64,000 nucleotides of DNA, taken from assembly GCA_003599335.1 (NCBI GenBank), contig QZJN01000003.1, positions 4,654-68,653 on the forward strand. Direction: 5' to 3'. Below, in pieces: positions 5,759 through 26,294 of this stretch. The stretch's first letter is position 1. The number at the start of each line of letters is the position of its first letter. Under the pieces are notes generated by a model. That model was given only the letters and a program-made list of their open reading frames with translations, ran no database searches and was not told where the DNA came from. This DNA is from Candidatus Parcubacteria bacterium. Its GTDB lineage: Bacteria; Patescibacteriota; Minisyncoccia; SURF-38. The position numbers and the translations under genes were made by a program.

Positions 5759-7191
5759 AAACTAATTTTTTGCAAAGGTTAGAGCAGATTATTTTTTTTG
5801 TTTTGGTTTTTGCCATACCGTTTCAGCTTCGGTTTGTGCTGCATAGTTATGGGATTTCAACCCTTGAGGAATTCAATACTTTATTTTTGTATTTTACCGA
5901 CATTCTTATAGTTGCTCTCTTGATAGTTTTTTTCATGCGTTACGTTGGGGATCAACCTTTAAAGAATTTTTTACGAGAGAGGTGGCGGGTAATTCACGAA
6001 TCTGATCCTCTATACCTTTTTCTTGTTGCTTTTTTTATTTTGACGATTTTAGCTTCTTTTCCTCCCAGAAGCATAGCGGTTTCTTTGTATCATATAGCCA
6101 AAACAGCCGAGTTTCTGTTGTTTTTTGTATACATAGTTTTGGCTTTCAGGCAATACAGCTTGACTGCGATTCTTAAAGTTTTTGTTGCCTCTGCTTTTAT
6201 TCAGGGTGTTATCGGGTTTTTCCAATTCACTTTTGAAAAATCACTTTCTTTAACCTTGCTTGGCGAGGCGGTCTTAGCTCCCGATCTTCCGGAAGTTGTT
6301 AGACTTTTTGTGAAAGAACTTTTCTTATTGCGTCCGTACGGTACGTTTCCCCATCCTCATTTACTTGCAATTTTTTTGGTCCTTGGACTTTTTTTCATTT
6401 CTTATATGATTCTAAAAAAACGTTTTTTTGGAGATTACCCAAACCCTGGATTTTTGCCAAAGGATGAAGAACGTAGGGCTTTTAAAGACAGTTTTATTCG
6501 CATCGGGATGTTGGTGGTTGTTTTTATAATGTTGGTTGGTTTAGCCCTTACATTTTCAAGATCTATAATTGTTGTTGGAATAGCCTTTTTGCTCGCAGGT
6601 TTTTTTTGGCTTTATAGTTCTTCCTGGGGAGCTGTTTTAAGAGAAAGATCAAAATACCTCATGTTTGTTTTTTTGATTTTTGTTATCATTATTGCTTTTA
6701 TGTTCAGGGTTGAGCTTTTTGAAAGGTTTCAGTTGGTTGGTCAGGCTGCGTTGAGTGGTTTTGGTGTTTTGGATAAAACCGCTTTGGACTTTATAGCCGA
6801 AAGGCCTTTGTTTGGTGTTGGCGCCGGGTATTATCCTATCAGACTTGCGGAAGTGAATCCCGATCTTGGTCCTTTACAATTACAGCCTGTAAATAACATT
6901 TATCTTCTTATTGCCGCTGAAACAGGGGTTGTAAATCTTATCTTTTTCATAGCTTTTCTTGGTTATCTTATGTTTGGTCTTGTTAGGGCTTTCAGGCAGG
7001 AAACCGACTTGGTGGCTAAGTTTTGGAAGCAACAACTAATTGCTGTTTTTGCCTTTTTGTTGATAAGTTCGTTTTTTTATCACGGCTTTTGGACTCTTCA
7101 ACAGGGGAGGTTAATTTTTTGGTTTTCTTTAGGGATTTTAGTTGCAACAGCAACAGAAACTAAAAAAGATCTTATTGATTCGGCTATTTAG
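5755..7191 (+). CDS. O-antigen ligase / Wzy-like polytopic membrane protein
   Basis: 478 aa, about 12 TM, with a large periplasmic-loop region between late TM helices, characteristic of O-antigen ligase/polymerase family proteins. 4-nt overlap with the upstream gene. Confidence 0.4.
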   Translation: MKTNFLQRLEQIIFFVLVFAIPFQLRFVLHSYGISTLEEFNTLFLYFTDILIVALLIVFFMRYVGDQPLKNFLRERWRVIHESDPLYLFLVAFFILTILASFPPRSIAVSLYHIAKTAEFLLFFVYIVLAFRQYSLTAILKVFVASAFIQGVIGFFQFTFEKSLSLTLLGEAVLAPDLPEVVRLFVKELFLLRPYGTFPHPHLLAIFLVLGLFFISYMILKKRFFGDYPNPGFLPKDEERRAFKDSFIRIGMLVVVFIMLVGLALTFSRSIIVVGIAFLLAGFFWLYSSSWGAVLRERSKYLMFVFLIFVIIIAFMFRVELFERFQLVGQAALSGFGVLDKTALDFIAERPLFGVGAGYYPIRLAEVNPDLGPLQLQPVNNIYLLIAAETGVVNLIFFIAFLGYLMFGLVRAFRQETDLVAKFWKQQLIAVFAFLLISSFFYHGFWTLQQGRLIFWFSLGILVATATETKKDLIDSAI

Positions 7192-7193
7192 GC

Positions 7194-8477
7194 ATGAAAA
7201 TTTTTGCCGATTTAGAAATACACTCGAAATACGCCCGTGCGGTTTCAAAGGATATGACCACAGAAAATCTCGGGCTGTGGGGCTTATATAAGGGTATAAA
7301 CGTTATCGGTACGGGTGATTTCACCCATCCTTTGTGGTTTAAAGAGCTTAAAGAAAAATTAGAACCAGCCGAGCCTGGGTTACTTAAACTGAAAAACAGA
7401 TTTGTTCCCAAAGATCATAAGGCAGAAGAAATGCCAAGATTTTTGTTAACGGCCGAGGTGAGTTGCATATATTCTAAAGGCGGTCGCGTCCGAAAAGTTC
7501 ATCAGTTGTTGTATGCGCCTTCTTTTGAGGCGGTTGAAAAAATAAATACACGTCTTGGATGGATAGGAAATTTAAAGGCGGACGGAAGACCTATTTTAGG
7601 CCTTGATTCAAAAGAACTTTTAAAGATAATTTTAGACACACCCGGTTCTGTTTTAATCCCGGCCCACGTCTGGACTCCGTGGTTTGGTATTTTTGGCTCA
7701 ATGAGCGGCTTCAACTCGCTTGAGGAATGTTTTGAGGAATTAACAAAGAATGTTTTTGCTATTGAGACGGGGCTTTCTTCAGATCCGCCCATGAATTGGA
7801 GAATAAAATGGCTTGATGGCGTCTCAATAATTTCAAGCTCCGACGCCCACTCGCTCCCAAAAATAGGAAGAGAGGCTTGTCTTTTTGATACGGAGCTTTC
7901 TTACAGCGGAATAATGGATGCCATAAAAAGTTCTGACCCAAAGAAATTTTTATATACCTTAGAGTTTTATCCCGAAGAAGGAATGTATCATTATTCGGGT
8001 CACAGGGCTCATAATATTGTTTATTCTCCAAATCAAGAAAAAGAAAAAAAGGCCATATGCGAAGTTTGCGGCAAGCCTGTAACCAGGGGGGTAATGAGTC
8101 GGATTGAAGAGTTGGCTGATCCTGCTCGAAAAGAAGGATATGTTGATGAAAAAAGAATTCCCTACAAAAATTTAGTGCCGTTGCAAGAGATTATTGCAGA
8201 GGCGTTTGACCAGGGTGTTGGCACAAAAAAGGTGGTGAGCGCCTATAAGGAATTGATCGGAACTTTTGGTTCAGAATTTAAGGTTTTGCTTGATGCGAAT
8301 ATTAATGATTTGATTCAGGCTTCGGCTCCAGAGATTGGTGAAGGTATAAAGAGGGTTCGGGAAGGTAAGCTTCATATTGAACCGGGATACGACGGAGTCT
8401 ACGGAGAAATAAAGATATTTGAAGAAGCCGAAAGAAAAGAATTGAGTAAGAAAGAAAAACAATCAGCGCTTTTCTAA
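7194..8477 (+). CDS. Endonuclease Q (EndoQ) family PHP-domain DNA repair endonuclease with C-terminal zinc finger
   Basis: N-terminus MKIFADLEIHSKYARAVSKDMT..GTGDFTHP matches the EndoQ PHP signature (DLHIHSxYSxAxSK..GTGD). A CxxC zinc-finger region (CEVCGKPVTRGVMSRIEELAD) and a C-terminal GYDGVYGEIKIF block parallel archaeal and Bacillus EndoQ. Confidence 0.7.
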   Translation: MKIFADLEIHSKYARAVSKDMTTENLGLWGLYKGINVIGTGDFTHPLWFKELKEKLEPAEPGLLKLKNRFVPKDHKAEEMPRFLLTAEVSCIYSKGGRVRKVHQLLYAPSFEAVEKINTRLGWIGNLKADGRPILGLDSKELLKIILDTPGSVLIPAHVWTPWFGIFGSMSGFNSLEECFEELTKNVFAIETGLSSDPPMNWRIKWLDGVSIISSSDAHSLPKIGREACLFDTELSYSGIMDAIKSSDPKKFLYTLEFYPEEGMYHYSGHRAHNIVYSPNQEKEKKAICEVCGKPVTRGVMSRIEELADPARKEGYVDEKRIPYKNLVPLQEIIAEAFDQGVGTKKVVSAYKELIGTFGSEFKVLLDANINDLIQASAPEIGEGIKRVREGKLHIEPGYDGVYGEIKIFEEAERKELSKKEKQSALF

Positions 8478-8793: not shown

Positions 8794-10521
8794 ATGAGTA
8801 ACGACGAGATTGCCAAGGTTTTGAATGAACTTGCTGGCTTTTTAGATATGGATGAAGTTCAGTTTAAGCCGAGAGCCTTTGAAAAAGCCGCAGAAGTAAT
8901 TTCAGCCTTTGAACAAGAGATCCCCGAGCTTTATAAGGAGGGCGGCTTGAAGGGAATTATGAGGATACCGGGGGTTGGTGTTGGCATTGCCGAGCGCATT
9001 GAAGAGTTTTTAAAAACAGGACACATTAAAGATCTTGATAAACTTAAGAAAAAATATCCCGTTGATTATCAACAGTTGCGGCGCGTTGAGGGCGTTGGCC
9101 CAAAACACATCAAGAAACTTTACAGGGATTTAGGCATACGCACTTTGGAAGATTTGGAAAATGCGGCCAAAAAAGGAAAAATCAGGAAACTTGGTCATTT
9201 TGGGCAAAAATCAGAGGAAAATATTTTAAGAGGGATAGATTTTGTTAAAAGTTCCGGAGGTCGTTTTGTGTTGGGTGATATTTTGCCGCTTGTGCGTCTA
9301 ATTGAAGAAAGGCTCGGGGCTCTTAAAGAAACAAAGAAGGTTGTTGTCGCCGGTTCTATCAGGCGCTGGAAAGAGACAATCGGGGATATAGATATTTTGG
9401 TTGTCTCAAAAAAACCCAGAAAGGTAATGGATTTTTTTGTAAAAATGCCCGAAGTGATTGATGTTCATGCCCATGGAGAAACAAAAAGTTCTGTTAAACT
9501 TTCAAAAGGAATCGATGTTGATTTAAGAGTCGTTGAAGAAAAAAGTTTTGGCGCCGCGCTTAATTATTTTACTGGCTCAAAAGATCACAACGTTGCCCTA
9601 AGGCAGCTTGCCATAAAGAAGGGTTATAAGCTCAATGAGTACGGTCTTTACAAGGGGGCTAAATTTGTCGCCGGAAGAAACGAAGAAGAATTATATAAGG
9701 CGCTTGGCTTCAAACAGACTTTTATTCCTCCAGAAATGCGCGAAACGAAAGGAGAAATTGAAGCCGCATTAAAAGGAGAGTTGCCAGAGATTATTGGCTA
9801 TAAAGATTTGAGAGGAGACTTACAGACTCAAACCAACTGGACCGACGGCGCTCACTCGATTGAAGAGATGAGCTTGGCTGCCAAAAAAGCCGGACTTGAA
9901 TACATTGTAATTACCGATCATACCAAGGCTTTGGCAATGACGGGGGGTAACGATGAAAAAAGATTGCTCAAACAATGGGCCGAGATTGATGGGCTTAACA
10001 AAAAAGGGCTGGGAGTTAAAATCTTGAAAGGCGCAGAGGTAAATATTTTAAAAGACGGAAGTTTAGATATTGATGATAAAACTCTTTCTCAAGGCGATGT
10101 TATTGGCGCGGCCGTGCACACCAATTTTAATATGAGTAAAAAAGATATGACCGAGCGTATAAAAAGAGCTATGAAAAATCCAAACGTAGATATTTTGTTT
10201 CATCCAACCGGGCGACTAATTAATAAAAGAGAAGCATATGAACTTGATATGGAAGAAATTATAAAAACCGCCAAAAATAGCGGGACGATTTTGGAGATAG
10301 ATGCTTATCCCGACAGGCTTGATCTTAAGGATGATCATATACGTTCAGCCATTGAGGCCGGGGTAAAGCTTTCAATTGACTCTGATGCTCATAATAAGAA
10401 TCATTTTGGGGTCTTGGAGTTTGGTGTCGCCCAGGCAAGACGAGGTTGGGCCACCAAAAAAGATATTATCAATGCTTGGCCGGCCGAAAAGATGTTAAAA
10501 TCTTTAAAAGATGCCCGTTGA
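8794..10521 (+). CDS. polX: DNA polymerase/3'-5' exonuclease PolX (Pol beta-like domain plus C-terminal PHP domain)
   Basis: N-terminal helix-hairpin-helix and Pol-beta nucleotidyltransferase motifs (GSIRRWKETIGDIDILV). C-terminal PHP histidinol-phosphatase-like block (ITDHT..., FHPTGR..., DSDAH). Start placed at MSNDEI, which fits PolX N-termini. Confidence 0.85.
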   Translation: MSNDEIAKVLNELAGFLDMDEVQFKPRAFEKAAEVISAFEQEIPELYKEGGLKGIMRIPGVGVGIAERIEEFLKTGHIKDLDKLKKKYPVDYQQLRRVEGVGPKHIKKLYRDLGIRTLEDLENAAKKGKIRKLGHFGQKSEENILRGIDFVKSSGGRFVLGDILPLVRLIEERLGALKETKKVVVAGSIRRWKETIGDIDILVVSKKPRKVMDFFVKMPEVIDVHAHGETKSSVKLSKGIDVDLRVVEEKSFGAALNYFTGSKDHNVALRQLAIKKGYKLNEYGLYKGAKFVAGRNEEELYKALGFKQTFIPPEMRETKGEIEAALKGELPEIIGYKDLRGDLQTQTNWTDGAHSIEEMSLAAKKAGLEYIVITDHTKALAMTGGNDEKRLLKQWAEIDGLNKKGLGVKILKGAEVNILKDGSLDIDDKTLSQGDVIGAAVHTNFNMSKKDMTERIKRAMKNPNVDILFHPTGRLINKREAYELDMEEIIKTAKNSGTILEIDAYPDRLDLKDDHIRSAIEAGVKLSIDSDAHNKNHFGVLEFGVAQARRGWATKKDIINAWPAEKMLKSLKDAR

Positions 10522-10954
10522 ACGCTCAGCTGGCCTGATTTTATTTAATGAAGCCAGAGAAGGAAGACGTTATCTGGTTTTGCATTCCACGCCATCGCCC
10601 GAATACCCTGATTTTTGGGATTTTTCCAAAGGAGTTCTTGATGGAAATGAGAAGGGTGTCGAAGCTGCTCGCCGTGAAGCCCAAGAAGAAACAGGAATAA
10701 CAGACCTCGATATTATTGAGGGTTTTAAATATACTGCTCGTTATTTCAGAAAAAATCGTAATGGAAAAGGCATTATTCCAAAGTTTGTCGCTATGTTTTT
10801 GGCCAGGACCGATAAAAAAGAAGTAAAGCTTTCATGGGAGCATGATAAATTTGAATGGTTAACTTATGAAGAGGCGCTTAATAGAATTTCAAACAAAGAA
10901 ATAAAAAAATCTTTGGAAGCCGCGGAAGATTTTTTAAATAAAAATGACATTTGA
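10511..10954 (+). CDS. NUDIX hydrolase
   Basis: Nudix box G-x5-E-x7-REAQEETGI present. Confidence 0.8.
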   Translation: MPVERSAGLILFNEAREGRRYLVLHSTPSPEYPDFWDFSKGVLDGNEKGVEAARREAQEETGITDLDIIEGFKYTARYFRKNRNGKGIIPKFVAMFLARTDKKEVKLSWEHDKFEWLTYEEALNRISNKEIKKSLEAAEDFLNKNDI

Positions 10955-14532: not shown

Positions 14533-14578
14533 TGGGGCCTCGTCTAAATCGTAAGATGAGGCCCTGTTTTTTATTTTA
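14533..14578. terminator. Bidirectional rho-independent terminator between the convergent GC-rich orphan gene and pyrG
   Basis: GGGGCCTCGTC..GATGAGGCCC stem followed by TGTTTTTTATTTT. Confidence 0.6.
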
Positions 14579-16214
14579 CTATACGTTTTTTTGAGGCAGC
14601 TTTTATAAAAGAAAAATAGATCGGGTGAGGAAATAAAGGCCGCGATTTAAATTCGGGGTGAAACTGGGTGCCTAAAAAGAAAGGATGATCCGCAAGTTCA
14701 AATATTTCAACCAAAGCTCCTTTTGGCGAAAGCCCCGAGAACAAAGCCCCCTTTTTTTCAAAAGCAATGCGGTATTTATTGTTGAATTCATAACGATGGC
14801 GATGACGTTCTTTTATTGGTGTTTTTATTTTAAATTTGGCGTAAGCTTTTTGGGCCAGAGATTTATCTTTTAAATGACAAGGATAAGCGCCAAGCCTCAT
14901 CGTGCCGCCAAAATGGTTTTTGGCGAGATGCCTCAATTGTTCCGGGATTAAATCAATTACGGGGTGGGGCGTTTTTGGATTGATTTCTTTTGTGTTTGCG
15001 CCTTTTAATTTCAAGACGTTTCGGGCAAATTCAATAACAGCCATTTGCATGCCATAACATATTCCAAGATAAGGAATTTTGTTGACCCTGGCGAAATGTA
15101 CTGCCGAAATTTTTCCTTCCACACCGCGTTCCCCGAAACCACCAGGTATCAGAATGCCATCGTAATTTTTAAGTTCCTTCAGTTTTGTTTTGGATTTTTC
15201 AAATTCAGTGGAATCAATCCAGCTTAAAATGGGCTTTAGGTTTTGAGCCCAAGCAGCGTGTTTTAGGGCTTCTATCAAAGATATATATGAGTCTGAAAAT
15301 GTGAAATCGCCGCTTTTAAAATATTTGCCGACGATAGCTATTTTTACTTCTTTTTTAAAACCTTTAATTTTTGTCGTAAGACGCTTCCAGCTTTTTAAAT
15401 CTTTGGTTTGGGATTTTATTTTAAGTTTTTTAAGAATTTTTGAGCCAAGGCCATCTCGTTCGAAATTAAGAGGAATTTCGTAAATATTCGTCACGTCCGG
15501 AGCCGAGATTACATCTTCTTCGCGGACTCCGCAGAAAGTTGCGAGTTTTCTTTTGCGGGGTATATCAATTGGTTGGTTGGAGCGGCCAATTATAAAATCG
15601 GGCTGAACTCCGGCCGAATTTAACAAATGAGCGGCTGTCTGGGTTGGTTTTGTTTTCATCTCGCCGATTTTTGCAGGAACCGGCAAAAAACTTACCAAAA
15701 TAAAAACAACATCCGACGGATGTTTAAGCTTGAGCATTCTACCGGCTTCTATAAAAAGAAGATTTTGGTATTCTCCGACAGTGCCGCCGATTTCAACGAC
15801 AACAACTTTGGCTTTTGTTTTGCGCGCAGCAATGTTCAATCGTCTGATTATCTCTTCGGGAATGTGAGGCACGGCTTCAACGCATTTTCCGCCATATCCC
15901 AAGGCTCGTTCTTTTTCTATCACGGCCCTGTAAACCCTGCCGGTCGTCATATAGTTCGTTGAGAGAATATTTTGGTCTAAAAATCTTTCGTAATTTCCTA
16001 TATCTTGGTCTGTTTCATCGCCATCTTCGGTCACAAAGACCTCTCCATGTTCTGTCGGGTTCATTGTGCCGGCGTCAACGTTTAAATACGGATCTATTTT
16101 TACGGCCGTTACCGGTACACCCTTGCTTTGTAAAATTTTGGCTATAGAAGCGACCGTGGTGCCTTTGCCAACGCCAGACATTACCCCTCCAACAACAAAA
16201 ATATACTTAACCAT
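14571..16214 (-). CDS. pyrG: CTP synthase
   Basis: MVKYIFVVGGVMSGVGKG N-terminal P-loop-like signature. C-terminal glutamine amidotransferase (GICYGMQ, HPEF). Start placed at MVKYIF (16214) rather than the upstream ATG. Confidence 0.9.
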   Translation of the reverse strand: MVKYIFVVGGVMSGVGKGTTVASIAKILQSKGVPVTAVKIDPYLNVDAGTMNPTEHGEVFVTEDGDETDQDIGNYERFLDQNILSTNYMTTGRVYRAVIEKERALGYGGKCVEAVPHIPEEIIRRLNIAARKTKAKVVVVEIGGTVGEYQNLLFIEAGRMLKLKHPSDVVFILVSFLPVPAKIGEMKTKPTQTAAHLLNSAGVQPDFIIGRSNQPIDIPRKRKLATFCGVREEDVISAPDVTNIYEIPLNFERDGLGSKILKKLKIKSQTKDLKSWKRLTTKIKGFKKEVKIAIVGKYFKSGDFTFSDSYISLIEALKHAAWAQNLKPILSWIDSTEFEKSKTKLKELKNYDGILIPGGFGERGVEGKISAVHFARVNKIPYLGICYGMQMAVIEFARNVLKLKGANTKEINPKTPHPVIDLIPEQLRHLAKNHFGGTMRLGAYPCHLKDKSLAQKAYAKFKIKTPIKERHRHRYEFNNKYRIAFEKKGALFSGLSPKGALVEIFELADHPFFLGTQFHPEFKSRPLFPHPIYFSFIKAASKKRIVK

Positions 16215-16290
16215 CCTTTCTATTTTGCCAGCTTTGAGGAATTTGGGCAAAAAAGAAAAAGGCCAATTTGGGTTAGCCTTTTTCTATCTG

Positions 16291-16309
16291 GTGGAGATGG
16301 GCGGAGTTG
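16291..16309. repeat. 19-nt direct repeat of the tmRNA 3' end (att-like footprint)
   Basis: GTGGAGATGGGCGGAGTTG at 16291-16309 is identical to 16490-16508, the complement of the tmRNA T-arm/acceptor 3' end. Confidence 0.7.
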
Positions 16310-16489
16310 CCTACAACTCTCACCAACTTCCGTTGGCTCGGTCGCAGGCCCGCCTCGCGGTTTGGCTCGCCTGTCGCTCGCCAAACATCGCTCCGGCATT
16401 CAACTCGGCTCGCGAGTAAAGCAGTTTACTCGCTTCTCATCTCCACATAAATCAAAAATTACCCAGCATTTATTGGGTAATTTTTGCTT
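16310..16489 (-). mobile_element. 180-bp GC-rich remnant segment between the tmRNA 3' end and its displaced 19-nt copy; carries the hairpin GCGAGTAAA..TTTACTCGC and the core GAGTTGAATGCCGGA shared with the tRNA-Leu-associated element
   Basis: Hairpin at 16412-16433 (plus-strand coordinates). The 15-nt core at 16392-16406 is the reverse complement of 51199-51213. A tmRNA terminator hairpin lies at 16462-16490. Confidence 0.5.
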
Positions 16490-16786
16490 GTGGAGATGGG
16501 CGGAGTTGAACCGCCGTCCGGAAGAAGCTTGATGACAAAGTTTCTACGAATGTACCCCCGTACGTGGGAGAGACGCTAAAAAGTTCAGTGCCTGCTTGCG
16601 CAGGCGCGCTCAATATATAACACCGGTTTTCTGCCCATTGAGCATCAGCAGGCCGATGGGCTTACTTAAGCGTAAGCCAGTGCCAAGTTTTTGTTGGCAG
16701 TTATAAGTTTTGCACCAGATTTACAAGTTAGTGCAGCTTGATTCGCGCTTTGTCAGAACATTCATCCGTCGAAGCCCGACATCCCC
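16488..16786 (-). ncRNA. ssrA: tmRNA (SsrA), one-piece
   Basis: Minus-strand 5' GGGGAUGUCGGGCUUCGACGG, like the canonical tmRNA 5' end. The 3' end is ..GGACGGCGGUUCAACUCCGCCCAUCUCCA(CA), with a G3:U acceptor pair. The internal tag reading frame is GCC AAC AAA AAC UUG GCA CUG GCU UAC GCU UAA, giving ANKNLALAYA. smpB is immediately upstream. Confidence 0.85.
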
Positions 16787-16787
16787 T

Positions 16788-17234
16788 CTATATTTTTAAT
16801 GTTCGTTTAATCTCTCTTTGAGTTTCTCTTTTTCTGATAGCTTCTCTTTTGTCTGATTTCTTCTTGCCTTTGGCTAAAGCTAACTCAAGCTTTACCAAAC
16901 CGTGCTTATTATAAAAGCTTAAAGGGATCAAAGTCAAGCCGCCTTGGCGCATTAAACCGATGAGTTTTGCAATTTCTTTTTTGTGCATCAGTAGTTTTCT
17001 TGAGCGGGTTGGATTGTAACCTTGCGGAGGAGTCTGGATTTGAGAAGGACTTAAATGCGCGTTCACCAAAAAAAGTTCTTTTCCGTGAGGAATGATAAAA
17101 GCATGAGATATATCAACCCTGCCTTCTTTGATCGCCTTTACTTCAAAGCCGTTCAAGGCTAAACCGGCCTCGAATGTTTCAAGGATTTGATAGTCGAATC
17201 TGGCTTTCCGATTTGTCGCAAACTCTTTTTTCAC
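16788..17234 (-). CDS. smpB: SsrA-binding protein SmpB
   Basis: MKKEFATNRKARFDYQILETFEAGLALNGFEVKA.. canonical SmpB N-terminus. Confidence 0.9.
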   Translation of the reverse strand: MKKEFATNRKARFDYQILETFEAGLALNGFEVKAIKEGRVDISHAFIIPHGKELFLVNAHLSPSQIQTPPQGYNPTRSRKLLMHKKEIAKLIGLMRQGGLTLIPLSFYNKHGLVKLELALAKGKKKSDKREAIRKRETQREIKRTLKI

Positions 17235-17321: not shown

Positions 17322-18935
17322 ATGGCTCAAAGCGGCACTGTAAAAGATTTAATAACCCAAGCAGTTTCGGAAGCTCTTAAAAGGCTTAAGCTTGAAGCCA
17401 AATTTGCGGTTGAATACCCATCTTTTTCAGAACATGGAGATTATTCAACCAACGTTGCCCTCATTTTGGCTTCCAAACTAAAAAAATCTCCGGTGGAAAT
17501 TGCCTATCAGATAACTGCCGATTTACCCCAACAGCTTAATATGTTTGAGAGAGTTGAGGTTACAGGTTCTGGATTCATAAACTTTTTTTTGCACCAGGAT
17601 TTTGTCCGTTCTCAAATAAAAAATATTTCCGATAAAAATTTTGGCGAACTAAAACTTGGGGATGGTCAGAAAGTTAATATTGAATTTATCTCGGCCAATC
17701 CGACAGGGCCTTTAACCGTCGGTAATTCACGCGGAGCTTTTTTTGGCGATGCTCTCGGTAATATTATGCATTTAGCAGGATATGATGTTGCTAAAGAGTA
17801 TTATGTTAACGACGCCAAAAGTTCAAACCAAATAAGGGAGCTTGGGCGTACAGCCCTTGGAAAGGGGGAGGCCTATAAATCGGATTATTTAGACAGGAAA
17901 CTGGAAGAGTTTAAGAAGAAGGGATTTAAGATAGAAACTCTTGATGAAGTTAGCCTTGGGCATTTAATTGCAAGTTCAATTCATGAAGACATTGAGGAAT
18001 TTGTAAAAGAGCAGTTAAAGATAAAATTTGATAAATGGTTTCATGAGCAAACCCTTTTTGACAAGGAAGTTTTGGATAAAATTTTAAACGATCTGAAGAA
18101 ACGAGATTTAATATACGAAAAAGACGGCGCTTTGTGGTTGAAAACAACACAATTTGGAGATTTACAAGATCAGGTTGTTGTCCGTTCGGAGGCTGGGGGG
18201 CAAGAGGGTCAGCCGACGTATTTTTTGAGCGATATCGGATATCACGCCGACAAATTTAAACGCAAATACGACATCGTTATAGACGTTTTGGGGCCGGATC
18301 ATCAGGGACATATCAAGCGAATGGAAGCCGTTGGCAAGATGCTCGGTTTTAAGGGTAAATTTATTTTACTTTTCACGCAGATTGTCCGTTTTAAAGAGGG
18401 CGGTTTGGCAATGAGACTTTCCAAGAGGTTGGGACAAACAGTAAATCTTGAGTGGCTTTTGGAGCAAGTTGGGCTTGATAGCGCGAGATATTTTTTCTTG
18501 ACTAAATCAATTGACACTCATATGGATTTTGACGTTGATTTGGCTAAAAGCAAAACTCTTCAGAACCCCGTTTTTTATATTCAGTATGCCCATGCAAGAT
18601 TGAGCAGTATTTTGCGTAAGGCCAAAGAGCAAAAATTGAACTCTAATTTCAAAAACATCGGATTGCTTAATGCCGAAGGCGAATTGCAGCTTGTAAAAAA
18701 ATTACTCCGTTTTCCCGAACTTGTCGCGACGATCAGTCAGGATTATCAGGTTCATGCTCTTACACACTATCTTTTAAGTGTTGCAACGGCCGCCAACTCT
18801 TTTTATGAGAAGGAAAGAATTATAAGCGAAGAAAAAGAATTGTCTGAAGCGAGACTATGTTTGATAGAAGCGGCAAAAAATGTTATTTTTAAAGCCTTAA
18901 AGCTGCTTGGCATGAACGCCCCGTTGAAAATGTAG
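17322..18935 (+). CDS. argS: Arginyl-tRNA synthetase
   Basis: N-terminal Arg-tRNA-synthetase add-on domain, class I core (FISANPTGPL..) and a C-terminal DALR anticodon-binding domain. Confidence 0.9.
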   Translation: MAQSGTVKDLITQAVSEALKRLKLEAKFAVEYPSFSEHGDYSTNVALILASKLKKSPVEIAYQITADLPQQLNMFERVEVTGSGFINFFLHQDFVRSQIKNISDKNFGELKLGDGQKVNIEFISANPTGPLTVGNSRGAFFGDALGNIMHLAGYDVAKEYYVNDAKSSNQIRELGRTALGKGEAYKSDYLDRKLEEFKKKGFKIETLDEVSLGHLIASSIHEDIEEFVKEQLKIKFDKWFHEQTLFDKEVLDKILNDLKKRDLIYEKDGALWLKTTQFGDLQDQVVVRSEAGGQEGQPTYFLSDIGYHADKFKRKYDIVIDVLGPDHQGHIKRMEAVGKMLGFKGKFILLFTQIVRFKEGGLAMRLSKRLGQTVNLEWLLEQVGLDSARYFFLTKSIDTHMDFDVDLAKSKTLQNPVFYIQYAHARLSSILRKAKEQKLNSNFKNIGLLNAEGELQLVKKLLRFPELVATISQDYQVHALTHYLLSVATAANSFYEKERIISEEKELSEARLCLIEAAKNVIFKALKLLGMNAPLKM

Positions 18936-18961: not shown

Positions 18962-21900
18962 ATGGAGGATGAAAACAAGAACGAATTTGTAAAGCAAGAA
19001 GAGGAGGTTTTGAAGTTTTGGCAAAAAAGAGATATTTTTGCCAAAAGTATAGCGTTGGCTAAAAATGCCAGACGCTTTGTTTTTTTTGAAGGGCCGCCTT
19101 CAGCCAACGCAAAGCCGGGGATTCATCACGTTTTGGCCCGTACCTATAAAGATTTATTTTGTCGGTTTAAGGCCATGTGCGGCTTTTTGGTGGAAAGAAA
19201 AGCCGGTTGGGATACTCATGGTTTGCCGATCGAAGTTCAGCTTGAGAAAGAGCTCGGTCTTAAAAATAAAAAAGAAATCGAACAATTCGGAGTTGATAAA
19301 TTCAACACCAAAGCCAAAGATTTGGTGTGGCGATACAAAGAAGAGTGGGAGAAGCTTACCGAAAGAATAGGTTTTTGGTTAAATCAGCAAGATCCATATA
19401 TAACTTACGATTGGCGTTACATCGAAAGCCTCTGGTGGATTATAAAACAAATTTCAAAGCGCGGTCTTTTGTACCAGGATTATAAAGTTGTTCCATATTG
19501 CACCCGTTGTGGCACGCCTTTATCTTCCCATGAAGTTGCGCAGGGATATAAAGAGGTTGAAGACGAAGCGGTTTACGTGAAGTTTAGAGTAAAAGAGGGA
19601 CAAAAGATTGGTGAATTTACTGCCAATGATAAAACTTATATCCTTGCCTGGACAACAACTCCATGGACATTGCCTGGGAACGTTGCTTTAGCTGTTGGGA
19701 AAAACATAAATTATAATCTTGTTCGCGTTGATGGGGATGATGAATTTTTGATAGCTGCCGAAGCTTTGGTCCAAAAAGTTTCTGAAGGGCGTTTATTTGA
19801 GAATACCCAGGTTTTTAAGGGTTCTGTATTGGTTGGTTTAAAATATGAACCTTTATTTAATATTTCCGCCCTTCAAAATGAAAAATCCCACAGGGTTTAT
19901 CCGGCTGATTTTGTTACTACAGAAGATGGCACCGGTGTTGTTCATACGGCCGTGATGTATGGAGAAGAAGATTTTGAGCTTGGTAAAAAAGTTGGCTTGC
20001 CGCAGCATCACACGGTTGACGAACAGGGAAAATTTACAAACGAAGTTCAGGGTTTTGAAAACCTTTACGTTAAAGACAAGGAAACCGAACAAAAAATAAT
20101 CTTTTACCTTAACGACAAGGGGTTTCTTTTTAAGACTCATAAGTATCGTCACGAATATCCATTCTGTTGGCGGTGTGATTCGCCTCTTTTGTACTACGCT
20201 TTAACATCGTGGTTTGTCGGGACTTCTAAAATAAGAAGCGAGCTTATAAAAAACAATAAAAAAATAAACTGGATTCCCGAACATATAAAAGAAGGGAGAT
20301 TTGGGACCTGGCTTAAGGAGCTTAAAGATTGGGCTTTTTCTCGAAACAGATATTGGGGTACTCCCTTGCCGGTCTGGCAGTGCCAAGTTTGCTCTCATCA
20401 AATGGTAATTGGTTCGCTTGATGAACTGACCGAGAATGCGTTTCATGTTCAGAATAATTATTTGCTTTTAAGACACGGGGGTACGGATTTAAACAAAAAA
20501 GAAATTTTAAATTCAGATCCGACCAAACAAGGAGATGAATTTGGCCTTAACGAAAACGGTCTGACGCAGATAAAAGCCATTATTCCAAAACTCAAGAAGA
20601 AGGCCGTAGATCTTATTTTTTCTTCAGATTTTCAGCGCACAAAAGAAACAGCCGAACTTATTGCGGGAGAGCTTGGGCTTAAGGTTGAGTATGATAAAAA
20701 ACTCCGAGAGATTGAGTTTGGGGTTTTTGACGATCAGCCCTATTCCAAGATGGATCATAATTTTCCTCACGGCCTTTCCCGTTTTGAAAAAAAACCCCAG
20801 GGAGGCGAAAACTACCGTAAAGTACGAACCAGAATGATGGAGTTTGTGTTGGGGTTGGAGAAAAAATATCACGGCAAGACTATACTTGTCGTTTCTCACG
20901 AAAATCCATTATGGCTGCTTGAAACAGGAATAAAAGGTTTGTCTGATGAAGGTTCCCTTAAATGGCGTAAGGAAAACTACATCAACACCGGACAATTTCA
21001 TGAATTGTATTTTCCGAATTATCCCTACAATAAGAAAGGCGAAATAGATTTGCACAGGCCTTATATTGATGGTGTTAGTTTAAAATGCAAAAAGTGCGGT
21101 AAGGAATCTCGGAGGGTTTCGGAGTTGATTGATGTTTGGTTTGATTCAGGAGCCATGCCTTATGCGCAGTGGCATTATCCCTTTGAAAATAAACAAAAAG
21201 TTGATGGTTTAAGAGCCGAGGCTTTTCCTGCAGATTTTATTTCCGAAGGCGTTGATCAAACAAGGGGATGGTTTTACTCATTGCTTGGGATTTCAACTTT
21301 GCTTGGCAGAGGTCCGTCTTATTTAAACGTCGTTTCTTTGGCTCATGTTCTTGATAAAGATGGTCAAAAAATGTCTAAATCAAAAGGAAATGTTGTTGAT
21401 CCTTGGTATGTTGTCGGAAAATACGGAGCCGATACGACAAGGTGGTATTTTTACGTTACTAATCCGGCCGGAGAACCAAAACTTTTCAACGAGAACAACC
21501 TGGCCTTGCAGCAAAGGGGATTTCTAAGGCTGCTTTGGAATTCATGGGTATTTTTTGAGACGTACGCCAGGAGGGGAGTTAAAAAACCAGAAGGAGTATT
21601 TGAGTTGAAAAAGAAAGTGAACATTCTTGATTTGTGGCTCGATTCTTATCTCAACGAAACAATTTTTGAAGTAAGATCGGCTCTTGAAGCTTATGATGCA
21701 ACTGGCGCGGCCAGGAGTCTTGAAAAATTTGTGGCCGATCTTTCAAATTGGTATATTCGTCGTTCAAGGGAAAGATTTCAGAGACCGACCGACTTAAATG
21801 ATTACGAGAACGGTCGTCAATATTTTGCCAAAGCTCTCTATATGGGAGGAATTTTGAGCGCTCCTTTTATACCCTTTCTGAGCGAATCAATATATCAGCG

Positions 21901-22540
21901 TATGAAGGTTTTTCCACAGCTTCGGTTTTTGAAATTTGCCGAGAGTGTTCACCTCAATCCTTATCCCGTTTGGCAAAAAGGAAAAACAGACAAAGAAGCT
22001 CTTAAAAATATGACGATAGTTAGGGAATTAGCCACGGCTGTTCATGCCTTGCGGGACAAGGCCAATGTCAAAGTCCGCCAACCACTAAAACAGCTTCAGC
22101 TAAAACTTAACGAAAAAGTTAAATTGTCTTCTGAGCTTTTGAAGATTTTGGCGGAAGAAATCAACGTTAAAGAAGTTGTGGTTGTTGAAGATATAAAACA
22201 ATCTCAAGATGTTGTTGTGTCTGAAGTGGTTCACGGCAAACTTGGTCTTAATATCGTTCTTGATGATTATCTTAGACAGGAAGGTTTTATCCGCGAACTA
22301 ATAAGAAATATTCAGGATATGAGAAAAACTATAGGGCTTTCTCCAGAAATTTCAGTAGCCCTTTACCTTGGGGCCGAAGACAAATTTTTTGGTTTTGCCA
22401 AGAATTATTTTGATGAACTTAAGCATAAAACCAATGCTAAAAGCATTGAATTTAAGGATATCCTTGAAGGGTCTTTTGATATCGAGAGGGATTTTCGTCT
22501 CGGGGAGCATAATATCCGGGTCGCAATAAAGAAGTTATAG
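18962..22540 (+). CDS. ileS: Isoleucyl-tRNA synthetase (type 2-like) with an inserted ~195-aa histidine-phosphatase (PGAM-like) domain
   Basis: IleRS motifs: PPSANAKPGIHHVLAR (HIGH region), GWDTHGLPIE and KMSKSKGN. Between the WAFSRNRYWGTP and DVWFDSGAMPYA core blocks (about nt 20450-21040) there is an insert with the histidine-phosphatase triad of motifs LLLRHGGTDLN (RHG), SSDFQRTKETAE and LVVSHENPL. Confidence 0.85.
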   Translation: MEDENKNEFVKQEEEVLKFWQKRDIFAKSIALAKNARRFVFFEGPPSANAKPGIHHVLARTYKDLFCRFKAMCGFLVERKAGWDTHGLPIEVQLEKELGLKNKKEIEQFGVDKFNTKAKDLVWRYKEEWEKLTERIGFWLNQQDPYITYDWRYIESLWWIIKQISKRGLLYQDYKVVPYCTRCGTPLSSHEVAQGYKEVEDEAVYVKFRVKEGQKIGEFTANDKTYILAWTTTPWTLPGNVALAVGKNINYNLVRVDGDDEFLIAAEALVQKVSEGRLFENTQVFKGSVLVGLKYEPLFNISALQNEKSHRVYPADFVTTEDGTGVVHTAVMYGEEDFELGKKVGLPQHHTVDEQGKFTNEVQGFENLYVKDKETEQKIIFYLNDKGFLFKTHKYRHEYPFCWRCDSPLLYYALTSWFVGTSKIRSELIKNNKKINWIPEHIKEGRFGTWLKELKDWAFSRNRYWGTPLPVWQCQVCSHQMVIGSLDELTENAFHVQNNYLLLRHGGTDLNKKEILNSDPTKQGDEFGLNENGLTQIKAIIPKLKKKAVDLIFSSDFQRTKETAELIAGELGLKVEYDKKLREIEFGVFDDQPYSKMDHNFPHGLSRFEKKPQGGENYRKVRTRMMEFVLGLEKKYHGKTILVVSHENPLWLLETGIKGLSDEGSLKWRKENYINTGQFHELYFPNYPYNKKGEIDLHRPYIDGVSLKCKKCGKESRRVSELIDVWFDSGAMPYAQWHYPFENKQKVDGLRAEAFPADFISEGVDQTRGWFYSLLGISTLLGRGPSYLNVVSLAHVLDKDGQKMSKSKGNVVDPWYVVGKYGADTTRWYFYVTNPAGEPKLFNENNLALQQRGFLRLLWNSWVFFETYARRGVKKPEGVFELKKKVNILDLWLDSYLNETIFEVRSALEAYDATGAARSLEKFVADLSNWYIRRSRERFQRPTDLNDYENGRQYFAKALYMGGILSAPFIPFLSESIYQRMKVFPQLRFLKFAESVHLNPYPVWQKGKTDKEALKNMTIVRELATAVHALRDKANVKVRQPLKQLQLKLNEKVKLSSELLKILAEEINVKEVVVVEDIKQSQDVVVSEVVHGKLGLNIVLDDYLRQEGFIRELIRNIQDMRKTIGLSPEISVALYLGAEDKFFGFAKNYFDELKHKTNAKSIEFKDILEGSFDIERDFRLGEHNIRVAIKKL

Positions 22541-22548
22541 ATCTTATA

Positions 22549-23262
22549 ATGTTGGTTACGCCGGCAATTATTTTAAGAAAGCTGGAAACTAAGGAACACG
22601 ATAAGTTTTTGGAATTACTTACGCCTCAATTCGGAAGAATAGACGTCGTTGCCAGGGGAACAAGAAAAATTGAATCTAAATTAAATCCGCACCTTAATTT
22701 GTTGAATATTCTTGAGGTTGGATTTGTTCAAGGTCCGGCAAATAAAGTTTTGGTTCTCGCAGACACAAAAGAAAAATTTGAAGCTTCTAAAGTTGAGCAG
22801 TACGAGGCCGCTTTTGAAATAATAAGATTGTTAGAAAAATTAACCTGGGCCGAGCTCCCAGAACCAAAAACATTCGTGTTGGCCGAGGAAGGTTTAAAAC
22901 AAATACGACTCTATCCTGATTTTTGCGGTCAGATAACAATAAAGTTCAAAATTAAACTTCTCGAAATTCTTGGTTATAAACCAGAGCTTGAAAAATGCAT
23001 CCATTGTCATAAGAGAGATTTTGTCAAAAAAACCTTTAATTACACCCAAGGAGGGCTAACCTGTAAGGATTGTCTCGGTCCTTACGAGGCGATAGATATT
23101 AAAGAGGAATCTTTTTGGAAAACAACAAACTATCTGCTTAATGATTTTGCTTGGCTTGAGCCGAAACTTAGCGCCGAGGATATAAATCAGCAAACTCGTT
23201 TCATTGATAATCTTTTTAACCATTTTGTTGACGATCGTCAAAAGAATGTAGCCTTTATATGA
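22549..23262 (+). CDS. recO: DNA repair protein RecO
   Basis: N-terminal OB-fold region (PAIILRKLETKEHDKFLELLT..GRIDVVARG) and a C-terminal C4 zinc motif (CIHC..CKDC). Confidence 0.65.
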   Translation: MLVTPAIILRKLETKEHDKFLELLTPQFGRIDVVARGTRKIESKLNPHLNLLNILEVGFVQGPANKVLVLADTKEKFEASKVEQYEAAFEIIRLLEKLTWAELPEPKTFVLAEEGLKQIRLYPDFCGQITIKFKIKLLEILGYKPELEKCIHCHKRDFVKKTFNYTQGGLTCKDCLGPYEAIDIKEESFWKTTNYLLNDFAWLEPKLSAEDINQQTRFIDNLFNHFVDDRQKNVAFI

Positions 23263-24968
23263 AATATTCCGTAAAGCACATAAGAATAATGACTTTTATT
23301 ATAACAATCCTTTTGATCGTTTTGCTTGCAATTTTGATAATGAGGGGTGTTTTTTCGAGACAACCCGTTTCTGTTTCTTTTGAAGGTCCAGGAGAAATTC
23401 TTAATGGGGAAGAAAGGGTTTTCAAAATTACTTATAAAAATAATTCAGGCCAAGAAATATCCAATGCGGAGTTGAATTTGACCGTGCCGCCAAACACCCT
23501 TCGCGACGGCAACCCCGTAGGTCCTTTAATCAGAGAAGTTATAGGCACAATGAAGCGTAAGGAAACTAAGGTTTTTACTTTTAACCTGGCCTTTTTTGAA
23601 AAACCCTCCGAAACTTTAAAACTGGGGGCAAAAGCGATTTATCAGCCCGAAGGAACAAGCGTTTTATTTGAAGTTGTTTCTGAAAAAGAGATAAAAATAA
23701 CAGGCCATGTCGTTGAGCTTTCTTTTGGTCCCGCAACGACAAACGCCTCGGGAACTTTTAACACTTCTTTGGTTATAACCAACAAAGCTCAACATCCGAT
23801 CAAGGATGTAAATTTAAAGATTACCTATCCTGATAATTTTTTGTTGGTTTCTGCCAATCCAAGACTGGCTTTTGGTCAAAAAAACATCTGGCAATTTGGG
23901 GAGCTTCAGGTTGCTTCAAGCACAACGGTTGAATTGACCGGTCGTATACTCGGGGCGCAGAGTCTTTCCCAACCATTTCAAGCTAATTTAATCAAAACCC
24001 TGCCATCCGGAGAGTTTGTTTTGGGCGAAACCTCAAGTATTAACCAGATTGTAAGTTCCGGTCTTATTATTTTTCAGAAGGTTAACAACGATAGGCCTTT
24101 AAGTGTCGGCTGGGGAGATGTGCTTGATTATGATTTATCTTATCGTAATGCTACAACAAACGATGTTGCCGATGTTATTATCGAATTTGCTTTTGATCCG
24201 AAATTGGTTGATTTAGCCAAATCAAATTTTAACGGTGGTATTATCGATCCGTCTTCAGGGACGGTTAGGTTTGATAAATTTAATTTAAGATCCTTGGAAA
24301 GGCTTACGGCCGGTCAGGAAGGAGTTTTAAGATTTAGCGTTGCCATTGTAAATTTACCGCCTCAAGGCGCTCTGATAAGAGAGAATTTTAATTTCAAAAG
24401 TTCGGCGGTTATCAGTGGTACAAAAACAACAAATGGAGGAGAAACTCCATTGGGCCAGGATATTTTAGATATGAAGCTTGAGACGAAAGTCCTTTTAGCG
24501 AGCAAGGTTTACTACCAAAGCAATTATTTTCAAAATATTGGCCCTCTGCCCCCACGGGTTGGCAACAAAACGACTTACACTGTTGTTTTGGAAGTTAGCA
24601 ATTTTTCAAACAACGTTTCAAAAAGTTCCGTGGAAGCATTTTTGGGACCGAATATAAGTTGGGAAGGCATCGTAGCTCCAAAAAATGCTACAATAAGATA
24701 TGATGCCACAATGCGCAAAGTTATTTGGGACTTGGGAACATTGCGCGCAGGAACAGGATTTAATCAGCCTTTAAAAACAGTCGCCTTTCAGATAGGCCTT
24801 ACTCCGACATTTGATCAGGTTGCCCAAAATGCTCTTTTAATAGGTCAGGCTAAATTTTCAGGCGTTGATGTATTTGCTTCAAGCTCTTTGAGTGTTTCTG
24901 TGGAGCCGGTTTATTCAAATTTGCCTCACGATCCTCTTAATTCAAACAAGGGCTCTGTTTTGCCATAA
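23259..24968 (+). CDS. Membrane-anchored large beta-rich surface protein (DUF11-like repeated domains)
   Basis: N-terminal TM helix, then about 530 aa rich in T/N/S/V beta-strand patterns resembling the conserved-repeat-domain (DUF11) surface proteins. Confidence 0.35.
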   Translation: MKYSVKHIRIMTFIITILLIVLLAILIMRGVFSRQPVSVSFEGPGEILNGEERVFKITYKNNSGQEISNAELNLTVPPNTLRDGNPVGPLIREVIGTMKRKETKVFTFNLAFFEKPSETLKLGAKAIYQPEGTSVLFEVVSEKEIKITGHVVELSFGPATTNASGTFNTSLVITNKAQHPIKDVNLKITYPDNFLLVSANPRLAFGQKNIWQFGELQVASSTTVELTGRILGAQSLSQPFQANLIKTLPSGEFVLGETSSINQIVSSGLIIFQKVNNDRPLSVGWGDVLDYDLSYRNATTNDVADVIIEFAFDPKLVDLAKSNFNGGIIDPSSGTVRFDKFNLRSLERLTAGQEGVLRFSVAIVNLPPQGALIRENFNFKSSAVISGTKTTNGGETPLGQDILDMKLETKVLLASKVYYQSNYFQNIGPLPPRVGNKTTYTVVLEVSNFSNNVSKSSVEAFLGPNISWEGIVAPKNATIRYDATMRKVIWDLGTLRAGTGFNQPLKTVAFQIGLTPTFDQVAQNALLIGQAKFSGVDVFASSSLSVSVEPVYSNLPHDPLNSNKGSVLP

Positions 24969-24971
24969 AAA

Positions 24972-26294
24972 ATGAAAGAAAAATCTCAAAACAATTTAAT
25001 GGATAAAGTTATTTCGCTTTGTAAACGAAGGGGTTTTATATTTCCCGGTTCTGAAATTTACGGAGGGCTTGCCAACTCCTGGGACTATGGACCATTGGGC
25101 GTTGAACTAAAAAACAACATCAAACAAATGTGGTGGGAGCGCTTTGTGCATCAAAGAGGCGACATTGTTGGCATTGACGCCGCTTTAATAATGAATCCTA
25201 AAGTGTGGGAAGCGAGTGGGCATTTAAAGGAATTTTCTGATCCTTTGGTCGAGTGTAAGGTTTGTCATGAGCGTTTTCGTGCCGACCAGAAAGATATTAT
25301 TGTAGAGCACGAAGAATTTCACGAAAAGCGCAAAGAATCTGCGGGATGGACCGAACCAAAACAATTCAATCTTATGTTTAAAACTTTTATTGGTCCGCTT
25401 CAGGATGAAAAATCAACTGCATATTTTCGTCCCGAAACCGCTCAAGCAATGTTTGTTAATTTTAAAAACGTTGTTGATACAACAAGACAAAACCTGCCAT
25501 TCGGTATTGCTCAAATTGGTAAGGCTTTTCGTAACGAAATTACTACTGGGAATTTTATTTTTCGTACTAAAGAATTCGAGCAGATGGAAATTGAGTATTT
25601 TATTGAAGAAAAAGACTGGCAAAATATTTTTGAAATGTGGCGTAAGGAAATGCTTTTTTGGATCAAAGATCTTGGGGTTAATTTAAAGAAGGTTCATGAA
25701 AGAGAAGTTCCAGACGGGGAACGGGCGCATTATTCCAAGAGAACCGTTGATTTTGATTACGAGTTTCCTTTTGGCAAAGAAGAGCTTTACGGTTTGGCTT
25801 ATCGGACAGATTTTGATTTAAGAAACCACGAGAAGGCTTCCGGTGTAAATCTTAAATATAAAGATGCAAAGACCGGCAAAGAGTTCTGGCCTCATGTCAT
25901 TGAACCAACGTGGGGTGTGGACAGGTCTTTATTAATTGTTTTGCTTGAGGCGTATCACGAAGAAGGAGATAGAGTCGTGCTTAAGCTTCCTTTAAGACTC
26001 GCTCCTTACAAAGTTGCAGTTTTTCCTTTGCTTGCAAACAAAGATAAGCTTGTAGAAAAAGCTAAAGAAATTTATAAAGATTTACAAAAAAATTTCTCGG
26101 TTGCCTGGGACGATCGGGGGAATATCGGTAAAAGGTATTATTCTCAAGATGAAATAGGAACTCCCTGGTGCATAACGGTTGATTTTGAGAGTCTTGAAAA
26201 CGATACAGTTACCGTCAGGGATAGAGATACCGCAAAACAGGAACGCATAAAGGTCGCTGGACTGACAACTTATTTTGAGGATAAGTTAAAATAA
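24972..26294 (+). CDS. glyQS: Glycyl-tRNA synthetase (alpha2 dimeric type)
   Basis: MKEKSQNNLMDKVISLCKRRGFIFPGSEIYGGLANSWDYGPLG.. canonical GlyRS N-terminus with class II motifs. Confidence 0.9.
   Translation: MKEKSQNNLMDKVISLCKRRGFIFPGSEIYGGLANSWDYGPLGVELKNNIKQMWWERFVHQRGDIVGIDAALIMNPKVWEASGHLKEFSDPLVECKVCHERFRADQKDIIVEHEEFHEKRKESAGWTEPKQFNLMFKTFIGPLQDEKSTAYFRPETAQAMFVNFKNVVDTTRQNLPFGIAQIGKAFRNEITTGNFIFRTKEFEQMEIEYFIEEKDWQNIFEMWRKEMLFWIKDLGVNLKKVHEREVPDGERAHYSKRTVDFDYEFPFGKEELYGLAYRTDFDLRNHEKASGVNLKYKDAKTGKEFWPHVIEPTWGVDRSLLIVLLEAYHEEGDRVVLKLPLRLAPYKVAVFPLLANKDKLVEKAKEIYKDLQKNFSVAWDDRGNIGKRYYSQDEIGTPWCITVDFESLENDTVTVRDRDTAKQERIKVAGLTTYFEDKLK

Follow-up and report, generated by a model that had tools for sequence, protein, structure and literature searches.

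A histidine phosphatase embedded in the isoleucyl-tRNA synthetase of Candidatus Parcubacteria and its free-standing form at ileS

How does a whole phosphatase come to lie inside an aminoacyl-tRNA synthetase, and what may it do there? The question is raised by the ileS gene in a stretch of 64,000 nucleotides (nt) from contig QZJN01000003.1 of a Candidatus Parcubacteria bacterium (assembly GCA_003599335.1), which was analysed as a whole and is called the window here. An earlier note, made from the DNA letters, had claimed that its isoleucyl-tRNA synthetase (IleRS) carries a histidine phosphatase of about 195 amino acid residues (aa) at 20450-21040, inserted in frame and not encoded by a neighbouring gene. 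Hidden Markov model (HMM) matches, alignment, fold and comparative evidence agree on this insertion, and the extra segment was measured as about 200 aa (nt 20438-21037) by alignment to insert-less IleRS, in agreement with the proposed extent. The neighbouring-gene state also exists, in sister lineages, where a gene of its own, immediately before ileS, encodes the phosphatase. The partnership between ileS and this phosphatase extends across Patescibacteria, and the embedded gene represents its cis form.

Synthetases are among the best-studied enzymes. The extra domains known from them serve editing, tRNA binding or the scaffolding of complexes; to our knowledge, none of them is a phosphatase. 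In the literature we found no publication describing a phosphatase within or beside any aminoacyl-tRNA synthetase, and two recent studies of IleRS evolution make no mention of a phosphatase-bearing IleRS. The parent families, type-2 IleRS (IleRS2) and branch 1 of the histidine phosphatases, are known; the widespread architecture and the gene partnership are new.

A phosphatase in the zinc-knuckle hairpin of IleRS

The open reading frame (ORF) at 18962..22540 on the plus strand was read in the window free of internal stop codons and frameshifts. Its product is identical to the NCBI protein RJQ14542.1, which lies on a 120-kb contig and is titled only 'isoleucine--tRNA ligase [Candidatus Parcubacteria bacterium]'. 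The model TIGR00392 (ileS) matched the protein with 861.5 bits against a cutoff of 621.4, in two stretches that lie one on each side of the insert. The Pfam domains tRNA-synt_1, Anticodon_1 and DUF5915 made up the architecture of an IleRS, with His_Phos_1 in addition. The parts of the gene are as follows.

18962..22540, plus strand: ileS, type-2 isoleucyl-tRNA synthetase with the embedded phosphatase, 1192 aa in a single ORF
19118..19129, plus strand: class I signature in the non-canonical form G53-I-H55-H56 (GXHH), from sequence reading
20330-20365, plus strand: WAFSRNRYWGTP, IleRS core block, aa 457-468, in the ORF frame
20381..20392, plus strand: C474-C477, first of the two CxxC pairs in the CP3 zinc knuckle, 16 aa ahead of the insert
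20438..21037, plus strand: inserted histidine phosphatase domain, aa ~493-692, bounded by comparison with insert-less IleRS and by PF00300
20462-20494, plus strand: LLLRHGGTDLN, aa 501-511, in the ORF frame
20471..20476, plus strand: R504-H505, phosphate-binding Arg and nucleophilic His (RHG), from conservation
20621-20656, plus strand: SSDFQRTKETAE, aa 554-565, in the ORF frame
20636..20638, plus strand: R559, second catalytic Arg (SSDFQR559TKETA), invariant in the domain alignment and in 40 proteins
20708..20710, plus strand: E583, probable proton donor (LRE583IEFG), from conservation
20885-20911, plus strand: LVVSHENPL, aa 642-650, in the ORF frame
20897..20899, plus strand: H646, second catalytic His (VVSH646EN), from conservation
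21086..21097, plus strand: C709-C712, second of the two CxxC pairs in the CP3 zinc knuckle, behind the insert, with both cysteines invariant
21131-21166, plus strand: DVWFDSGAMPYA, IleRS core block, aa 724-735, in the ORF frame
21368..21382, plus strand: KMSKS loop, aa 803-807, from the sequence and invariant in 40 homologues

The phosphatase signatures and IleRS core blocks that had been quoted in the earlier note are five peptides, and all of them were recovered in one frame at their places. The position of the insert became clear from insert-less IleRS, where '...C-x-x-C-...-GS-x-x-EL' joins directly 'P-Y-N-x-x-G-E-L-D-L-H-R-P-Y-I-D-...-C-x-x-C-...-DVWFDSG'. The domain occupies the tip of a zinc-knuckle hairpin and is flanked by C474xxC477 and C709xxC712. 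This hairpin was assigned to the CP3 subdomain because of a study in which the topology of CP3 varies among the Candida, Thermus and Staphylococcus enzymes and a zinc motif is present in Thermus (PMC7191050). In a conservation alignment of 40 full-length homologues, which are 47-62% identical to the window protein, three of the four zinc cysteines were invariant and the fourth, C477, was conserved in at least 90%. The junctions read ...ENAFHVQNNY and ...YFPNYPYNKKGEIDLHRP, and the guanine-cytosine (GC) content was 0.39-0.42 over both of them, with no step.

The Pfam model His_Phos_1 (PF00300) matched aa 501-665 (nt 20462-20956) with an E value of 1.1e-34 and 120.2 bits, against a gathering cutoff of 21.7, so the HMM search that the earlier note had called for supported a histidine-phosphatase fold. 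Conservation was then read from about 125 embedded and about 72 free-standing instances of the domain. R504, H505, R559 and H646 were invariant across them, save for fragments and single exceptions. In the ungapped embedded copies R504 was found in 116/116 and H505 in 115/116, and both in 65/65 of the free copies; H646 was invariant in the embedded copies and present in 70/72 of the free ones. Position 583 was Glu or Asp in all ungapped copies but one. In the 40 full-length proteins the invariant residues of the phosphatase were N498, R504, H505, R559, G615, E616, R624 and H646. In the alignment, E583 matches the L-x-E-x-x-x-G of branch-1 enzymes and is the probable proton donor. Because E583 occupies this position, the doubt of the earlier note, which had held the domain to be possibly dead since no proton donor was obvious, is settled. 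With R504, H505, R559, E583 and H646 all conserved, the phosphatase domain should apparently be fully active, as judged from its residues.

The fold was studied with AlphaFold2 models. For the segment of aa 440-759, the predicted local distance difference test (pLDDT) values were above 90 throughout the insert. The full-length model reached a mean pLDDT of 87.8 and a predicted template modelling score of 0.79, and the insert was its most confident part (pLDDT 91-97). In the model the domain is compact and confidently folded and is attached to IleRS by very short linkers. A Foldseek search with the insert returned PhoE, PspA, GpgP and CobC with probability 1.0, template modelling (TM) scores of 0.70-0.78 (target-normalised) and 21-25% identity. 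By the HMM match, the catalytic R-H-R-E-H set and the alpha/beta fold, the insert is a branch-1 histidine phosphatase.

None of the specific families fitted. The dPGM equivalogs scored below their cutoffs on the insert (dPGM_arch 82 versus 225 bits, pgm_1 16 versus 81.7, GpmB 44-48 versus 261). We infer a short cap without the mutase-type C-terminal tail, because of the length of the domain and the failure at every one of these dPGM cutoffs. The insert also remained below the cutoffs of the alpha-ribazole phosphatase CobC (TIGR03162, 90-94 bits versus 162.9), of PspA (NF045917, 58-61 versus 350), of phosphoserine phosphatase 1 (NF009994, 64-68 versus 277) and of the phosphohistidine phosphatase SixA (TIGR00249, 16 versus 74.5). 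No substrate can be inferred by homology, because every NCBIfam equivalog was below cutoff and the PDB relatives are generic metabolite phosphatases. In PHROGs, the insert matched only the unannotated family phrog_12933. No paralogue of the phosphatase was seen in the window, as a phmmer search of the insert against all window ORFs matched ileS only.

The host protein is a type-2 IleRS, as it has the C-terminal domain DUF5915 (PF19302) and the GXHH motif and finds its best PDB matches in PmIleRS2. For the full-length model, the best PDB matches in Foldseek were the P. megaterium IleRS2 entries 8c8v, 8c8w, 8c9d and 8c8u, together with 1ile from T. thermophilus. H55 and H56 of GIHH were invariant in the 40 homologues, as was the editing motif TTTPWTLP (aa 231-238). 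Since its catalytic residues are kept, the IleRS part should be fully active. The G/AXHH form occurs only in IleRS2 and confers hyper-resistance to mupirocin (PMC10485003). At least 82/119 of the insert-bearing homologues had GXHH, and in 35 others the regular expression matched no motif; the canonical HYGH was seen in some relatives that have the free-standing phosphatase.

Embedded and free-standing forms at ileS

The earlier note had left to be checked whether the orthologous ileS of related genomes carries the same insert. The combination of PF00133 and PF00300 was found in 119/119 of the best database homologues, which are 46-61% identical and 1064-1373 aa long and have one copy of the domain each. 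These homologues are 90%-identity clusters found with the full-length query, and they come from many independent Patescibacteria assemblies. By the labels that the sequence sources give, the embedded form is found in Parcubacteria, Wolfebacteria, Jorgensenbacteria, Yanofskybacteria, Azambacteria, Spechtbacterales, Minisyncoccia and Paceibacterota, and fragments of it are labelled Nealsonbacteria and Magasanikbacteria. The fusion in a single ORF was also found in five contigs of species-representative genomes (L001, L002, L003, L005 and L006). When 1.84 billion representatives were searched with the insert only, the best 150 included about 85 proteins with the phosphatase inside IleRS and about 58 in which it is free-standing. 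In public databases such sequences go back at least to the Wolfebacteria GW2011 genome.

Some embedded or free-standing copies have archaeal labels from their sources, one of them 'Nanoarchaeota archaeon' and several 'Pacearchaeota archaeon' (P0003, P0122, P0123 and P0125). One co-member of such a 90% cluster is labelled Pacebacteria/Paceibacterota, and the archaeal labels probably reflect an error of binning or labelling and not an archaeal occurrence. One insert-bearing IleRS of 1373 aa (P0342) is further extended at its N-terminus by about 210 aa with no Pfam match; its start may have been mis-called, or the extension may be one more added part.

The closest free-standing homologues are proteins of about 186-198 aa with 32-48% identity to the insert, and the insert aligns end to end with a complete free-standing protein. 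Eight distinct cases were examined individually, and in 8/8 the gene is directly upstream of an insert-less ileS. Four of them are species genomes (L007, L021, L027 and L039, the last being the cultured Minisyncoccus archaeiphilus PMX.108) and four are database proteins (P0064, P0122, P0063 and P0080). The usual order is argS-phosphatase-ileS-recO, and the window has the same synteny with argS-ileS(+insert)-recO. In one locus (L087) the upstream neighbours are an ABC transporter/FtsX and the IleRS is divergent (36% identity), and the phosphatase still abuts ileS. The two flanking genes of the window are the following.

17322..18935, plus strand: argS, upstream neighbour, with the Pfam domains of arginyl-tRNA synthetase (ArgRS) and a conserved position
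22549..23262, plus strand: recO, downstream neighbour, with RecO_N and RecO_C from Pfam and the same place in L007 and L084-L086

The link to ileS was then followed in metagenome contigs, which were scanned with the domain alignment, and the 80 best loci (37-48% identity) were inspected. The phosphatase was embedded in 47 of them and probably embedded in 2 more that are cut by the contig end. It was free and immediately upstream of ileS in 27, and free, with 1-3 kb of intervening genes ahead of ileS, in 3; the remaining contig ends after the phosphatase. Embedded or free, the phosphatase was therefore at ileS in 79/80, and a free and an embedded copy were found together at one locus in 0/80. 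In 17 of the 27 free loci its stop codon overlaps the start of ileS by 4-25 nt, and the other 10 have a gap of 4-32 nt. The overlap suggests that the free form is translationally coupled to ileS and that the two proteins are co-produced 1:1.

Among the intervening genes, two Cys-rich ORFs were seen at 5149-7783 of one locus (L132), which by eye resemble radical-SAM/SPASM proteins, and a 246-aa protein of no known function was seen at 4642-5382 of L140 and likewise in L166.

In rare variants the domain has other places than the CP3 hairpin. In one IleRS (P0169) the phosphatase follows DVWFDSG...YPFEN, near aa 745 by the numbering of the window protein. Three others (P0163, P0215 and P0266) have two phosphatase domains, drawn from the CP3, the ~745 and a ~875 site, in a chain of up to 1419 aa. 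The ~875 site is just ahead of the anticodon-binding domain and coincides with the sole internal loop of the AlphaFold2 model with a pLDDT below 50 (aa 875-883). Three IleRS loops are used in all, at about aa 492, 745 and 875, and all three border the second, KMSKS-bearing half of the Rossmann fold. The domain was also found in other synthetases, with 3-4 His_Phos_1 domains in a valyl-tRNA synthetase (ValRS, P0179) and one fused to the C-terminus of an ArgRS (P0147), and there are tandem two-domain phosphatases of about 410 aa (P0184 and P0262). The ArgRS fusion is consistent with the loss of a stop codon between neighbours.

In a neighbour-joining tree of the N-terminal half of IleRS (463 columns, no bootstrap), the free-upstream and embedded states interleave with about 9 Fitch changes. 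Because this tree is without bootstrap, only more than one transition is claimed. The differing insertion sites are firmer evidence of independent insertion events than the tree. A neighbour-joining tree of the domain (194 columns; 77 pure clades, 28 Fitch changes, some fragments misclassed as free) was too noisy and was not relied on.

Possible roles of the phosphatase

We favour the reading that IleRS has in the phosphatase a dedicated accessory phosphomonoesterase, whose substrate is presented at or by the synthetase, and we give this reading as a whole a probability of roughly 45%. The housekeeping IleRS has received a whole branch-1 phosphatase of about 190 aa in the tip of its CP3 zinc-knuckle hairpin, and the phosphatase would serve IleRS as a domain in cis or as a subunit from a separate gene. 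It would follow the usual two-step phospho-histidine mechanism, with H505 as the attacking residue, R504, R559 and H646 binding the phosphate and E583 giving a proton to the leaving group. The most speculative step is that the substrate would be offered at or by the synthetase, rather than being a free metabolite. One candidate would be tRNA-Ile whose charging is blocked by a phosphate at its 2'/3' end, and another an inhibitory phospho-serine on the synthetase itself, after the model of HipA/HipT; with either, the module would keep aminoacylation running. The HipA/HipT kinases inactivate the class I synthetases GltX and TrpS by phosphorylating a Ser of the KMSKS-type loop (PMC6581861). A macromolecular substrate handled at the synthetase is preferred here, speculatively, because the chemistry of isoleucine is without phosphate, because the module also occurs on ValRS and ArgRS, and because its sites flank the KMSKS half.

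Several points weigh against this reading. The nearest characterised relatives of the insert (PspA, PhoE, CobC, GpgP and a riboflavin-pathway HFP, 21-25% identical) are all small-molecule phosphatases, and no model of PADLOC-DB was matched by the insert or by two free-standing homologues. A conserved operon position is no proof of a shared function; the order ribF-ileS-lspA is kept in Proteobacteria without a known functional link. The ArgRS fusion shows that adjacency alone can yield fusions.

The main rival to the accessory phosphomonoesterase is a hitch-hiker. An ordinary housekeeping small-molecule phosphatase, acting on a sugar phosphate, phosphoglycerate, nucleotide or cofactor intermediate, could have come by chance to lie in the argS-ileS operon of reduced genomes. 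Local duplications and deletions could then have carried it into loops of IleRS that are permissive; there it would be tolerated and co-expressed, but chemically unrelated to aminoacylation. The metabolite phosphatases are its closest characterised relatives in both sequence and fold, the ArgRS fusion resembles a simple loss of the stop codon between neighbours, the CP3 loop is permissive enough to hold an unrelated DUF559 in a Saprospiraceae IleRS, and the ~875 site falls in the only internal low-confidence loop. The link to ileS, however, is kept in 79/80 loci over 37-48% identity, despite a changed upstream neighbour and IleRS type, and the overlap of stop and start suggests stoichiometric co-production. 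Nor does neutral drift predict that the domain was inserted in frame repeatedly, at three sites, was duplicated and was acquired by a ValRS, and we regard this explanation as rather unlikely, though to be taken seriously. An improbable one is that the domain binds a phosphometabolite, for example an intermediate of glycolysis, turns it over slowly and tunes IleRS via the rigid CP3, so that translation would be coupled to the energy status in organisms with few regulators. The very short linkers and confident packing of the modelled domain would suit such a sensor, the conserved catalytic residues double as ligand-binding residues, and CP3 runs directly into the strand that bears the active-site DVWFDSG. 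Against it, the free-standing forms would have to dock on IleRS, the multi-copy and multi-site variants are ill-suited to a precise allosteric path, and we know of no precedent.

The other explanations concern the insert as such. A selfish or mobile insertion, as the remnant of an intein-like or homing element in a conserved gene, might be thought of because the same loop holds the endonuclease-like DUF559 in a Bacteroidota IleRS and several insertion sites are used. The window protein gave no Pfam match to a Hint or endonuclease domain, its junctions have no intein splice residues, the domain is a whole cellular gene otherwise found next door, and its catalytic residues are under strong purifying selection; an intein-like element was rejected on these grounds and is left with a very small probability. 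An equally small one is given to a catalytically dead module that would be structural or bind tRNA. For it speaks only the general tendency of inserted domains to degenerate; it was rejected on the conservation of R504, H505, R559, E583 and H646, the whole catalytic set being invariant in embedded copies over 35-60% identity. An assembly chimera or frameshift at the insert borders, which the earlier note had named as what could undo its claim, is refuted by the recurrence of the architecture in independent assemblies. The ORF is continuous, the GC content is flat over the junctions, and identical junctions were found in 119/119 best homologues and in the five species-representative contigs, so that practically no probability remains for it.

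A more daring form of the accessory reading may be added, which we consider unlikely. The phosphatase could be a built-in repair enzyme on the class Ia synthetases of Patescibacteria, IleRS above all, and undo an inhibitory phosphorylation by toxins, either at the tRNA 3' end or at the serine of the KMSKS loop. If so, an arms race with kinase or pyrophosphokinase toxins would explain the re-insertion, the duplication and the spread to ValRS and ArgRS, and the repair phosphatase would be an unrecognised layer of self-protection of the translation apparatus.

Across a large radiation with minimal genomes and few dispensable genes, IleRS is tied to a phosphatase that appears to be active. This would imply that some step in the formation, protection or regulation of isoleucyl-tRNA involves an unrecognised phosphomonoester. 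A cultured species with the two-gene form exists in M. archaeiphilus. The finding also concerns annotation, as many insert-bearing proteins carry only generic synthetase names in NCBI, such as 'class I tRNA ligase family protein' or plain IleRS.

Gene neighbourhood and comparison with known systems

In the window, ileS is surrounded by a housekeeping translation cluster at 14571-17234 and 22549-26294. Besides argS and recO, its members are the following.

in the 14571-17234 region, minus strand: pyrG, upstream member of the cluster
16490-16786, minus strand: tmRNA, abutting smpB
16788-17234, minus strand: smpB, upstream member of the cluster
downstream of recO and before the class II synthetase: DUF11 surface-type protein, member of the cluster
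24972-26294: class II synthetase, member of the cluster

At another locus (L081/L082, a 195-kb contig), a bAvd gene (PF22296) and a reverse transcriptase (RVT_1) were seen at 9716-10567, 1-2 kb downstream of ileS. The pair looks like a diversity-generating retroelement.

Of the known systems, the small branch-1 phosphatases PhoE (1h2e/1ebb), PspA (4ij5/4ij6), CobC (6e4b) and GpgP (Rv2419c, 4qih) resemble the insert in the fold, the size of about 190-210 aa, the small cap and the R-H-R-E-H set. They are free-standing and act on metabolites, whereas the subfamily of the insert is tied to ileS. A fusion of a branch-1 phosphatase to a nucleic-acid enzyme is known from the RNase H/acid phosphatase (NF005567, PRK07238), which was the second-best NCBIfam match of the insert with 86-91 bits, far under its cutoff of 326. 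There the fusion is terminal rather than a nested insertion, and the partner is another enzyme.

On the side of the synthetase, the solved enzymes IleRS2 8c8v and 1ile share the full set of IleRS domains and motifs, with TM scores of 0.81-0.88 (target-normalised). The T. thermophilus IleRS shares the CxxC...CxxC zinc knuckle of CP3, and the hyper-resistant IleRS2 shares GXHH (PMC10485003). The solved IleRS chains have 813-1061 aa, compared with 1192 here, and neither they nor any IleRS described so far have an enzymatic domain of about 200 aa in CP3. A curated precedent for an extra enzymatic domain on IleRS is ileS_w_GNAT (NF040702); it differs in that the domain is a GNAT, and the window protein scores 265 against its cutoff of 1999.

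A parallel for the position is the Saprospiraceae IleRS (L008:4480-8142, in the metagenome-assembled genome contig JBGAJY010000117.1, Bacteroidota), which also has a foreign domain in the CP3 hairpin. It belongs to another phylum, and its domain is the endonuclease-like DUF559 (PF04480, E value 8e-33), located at the same point; no free-standing partner gene was found for DUF559 in L008. Because this IleRS has DUF559 there, the tip of the CP3 hairpin tolerates insertions also in unrelated phyla.

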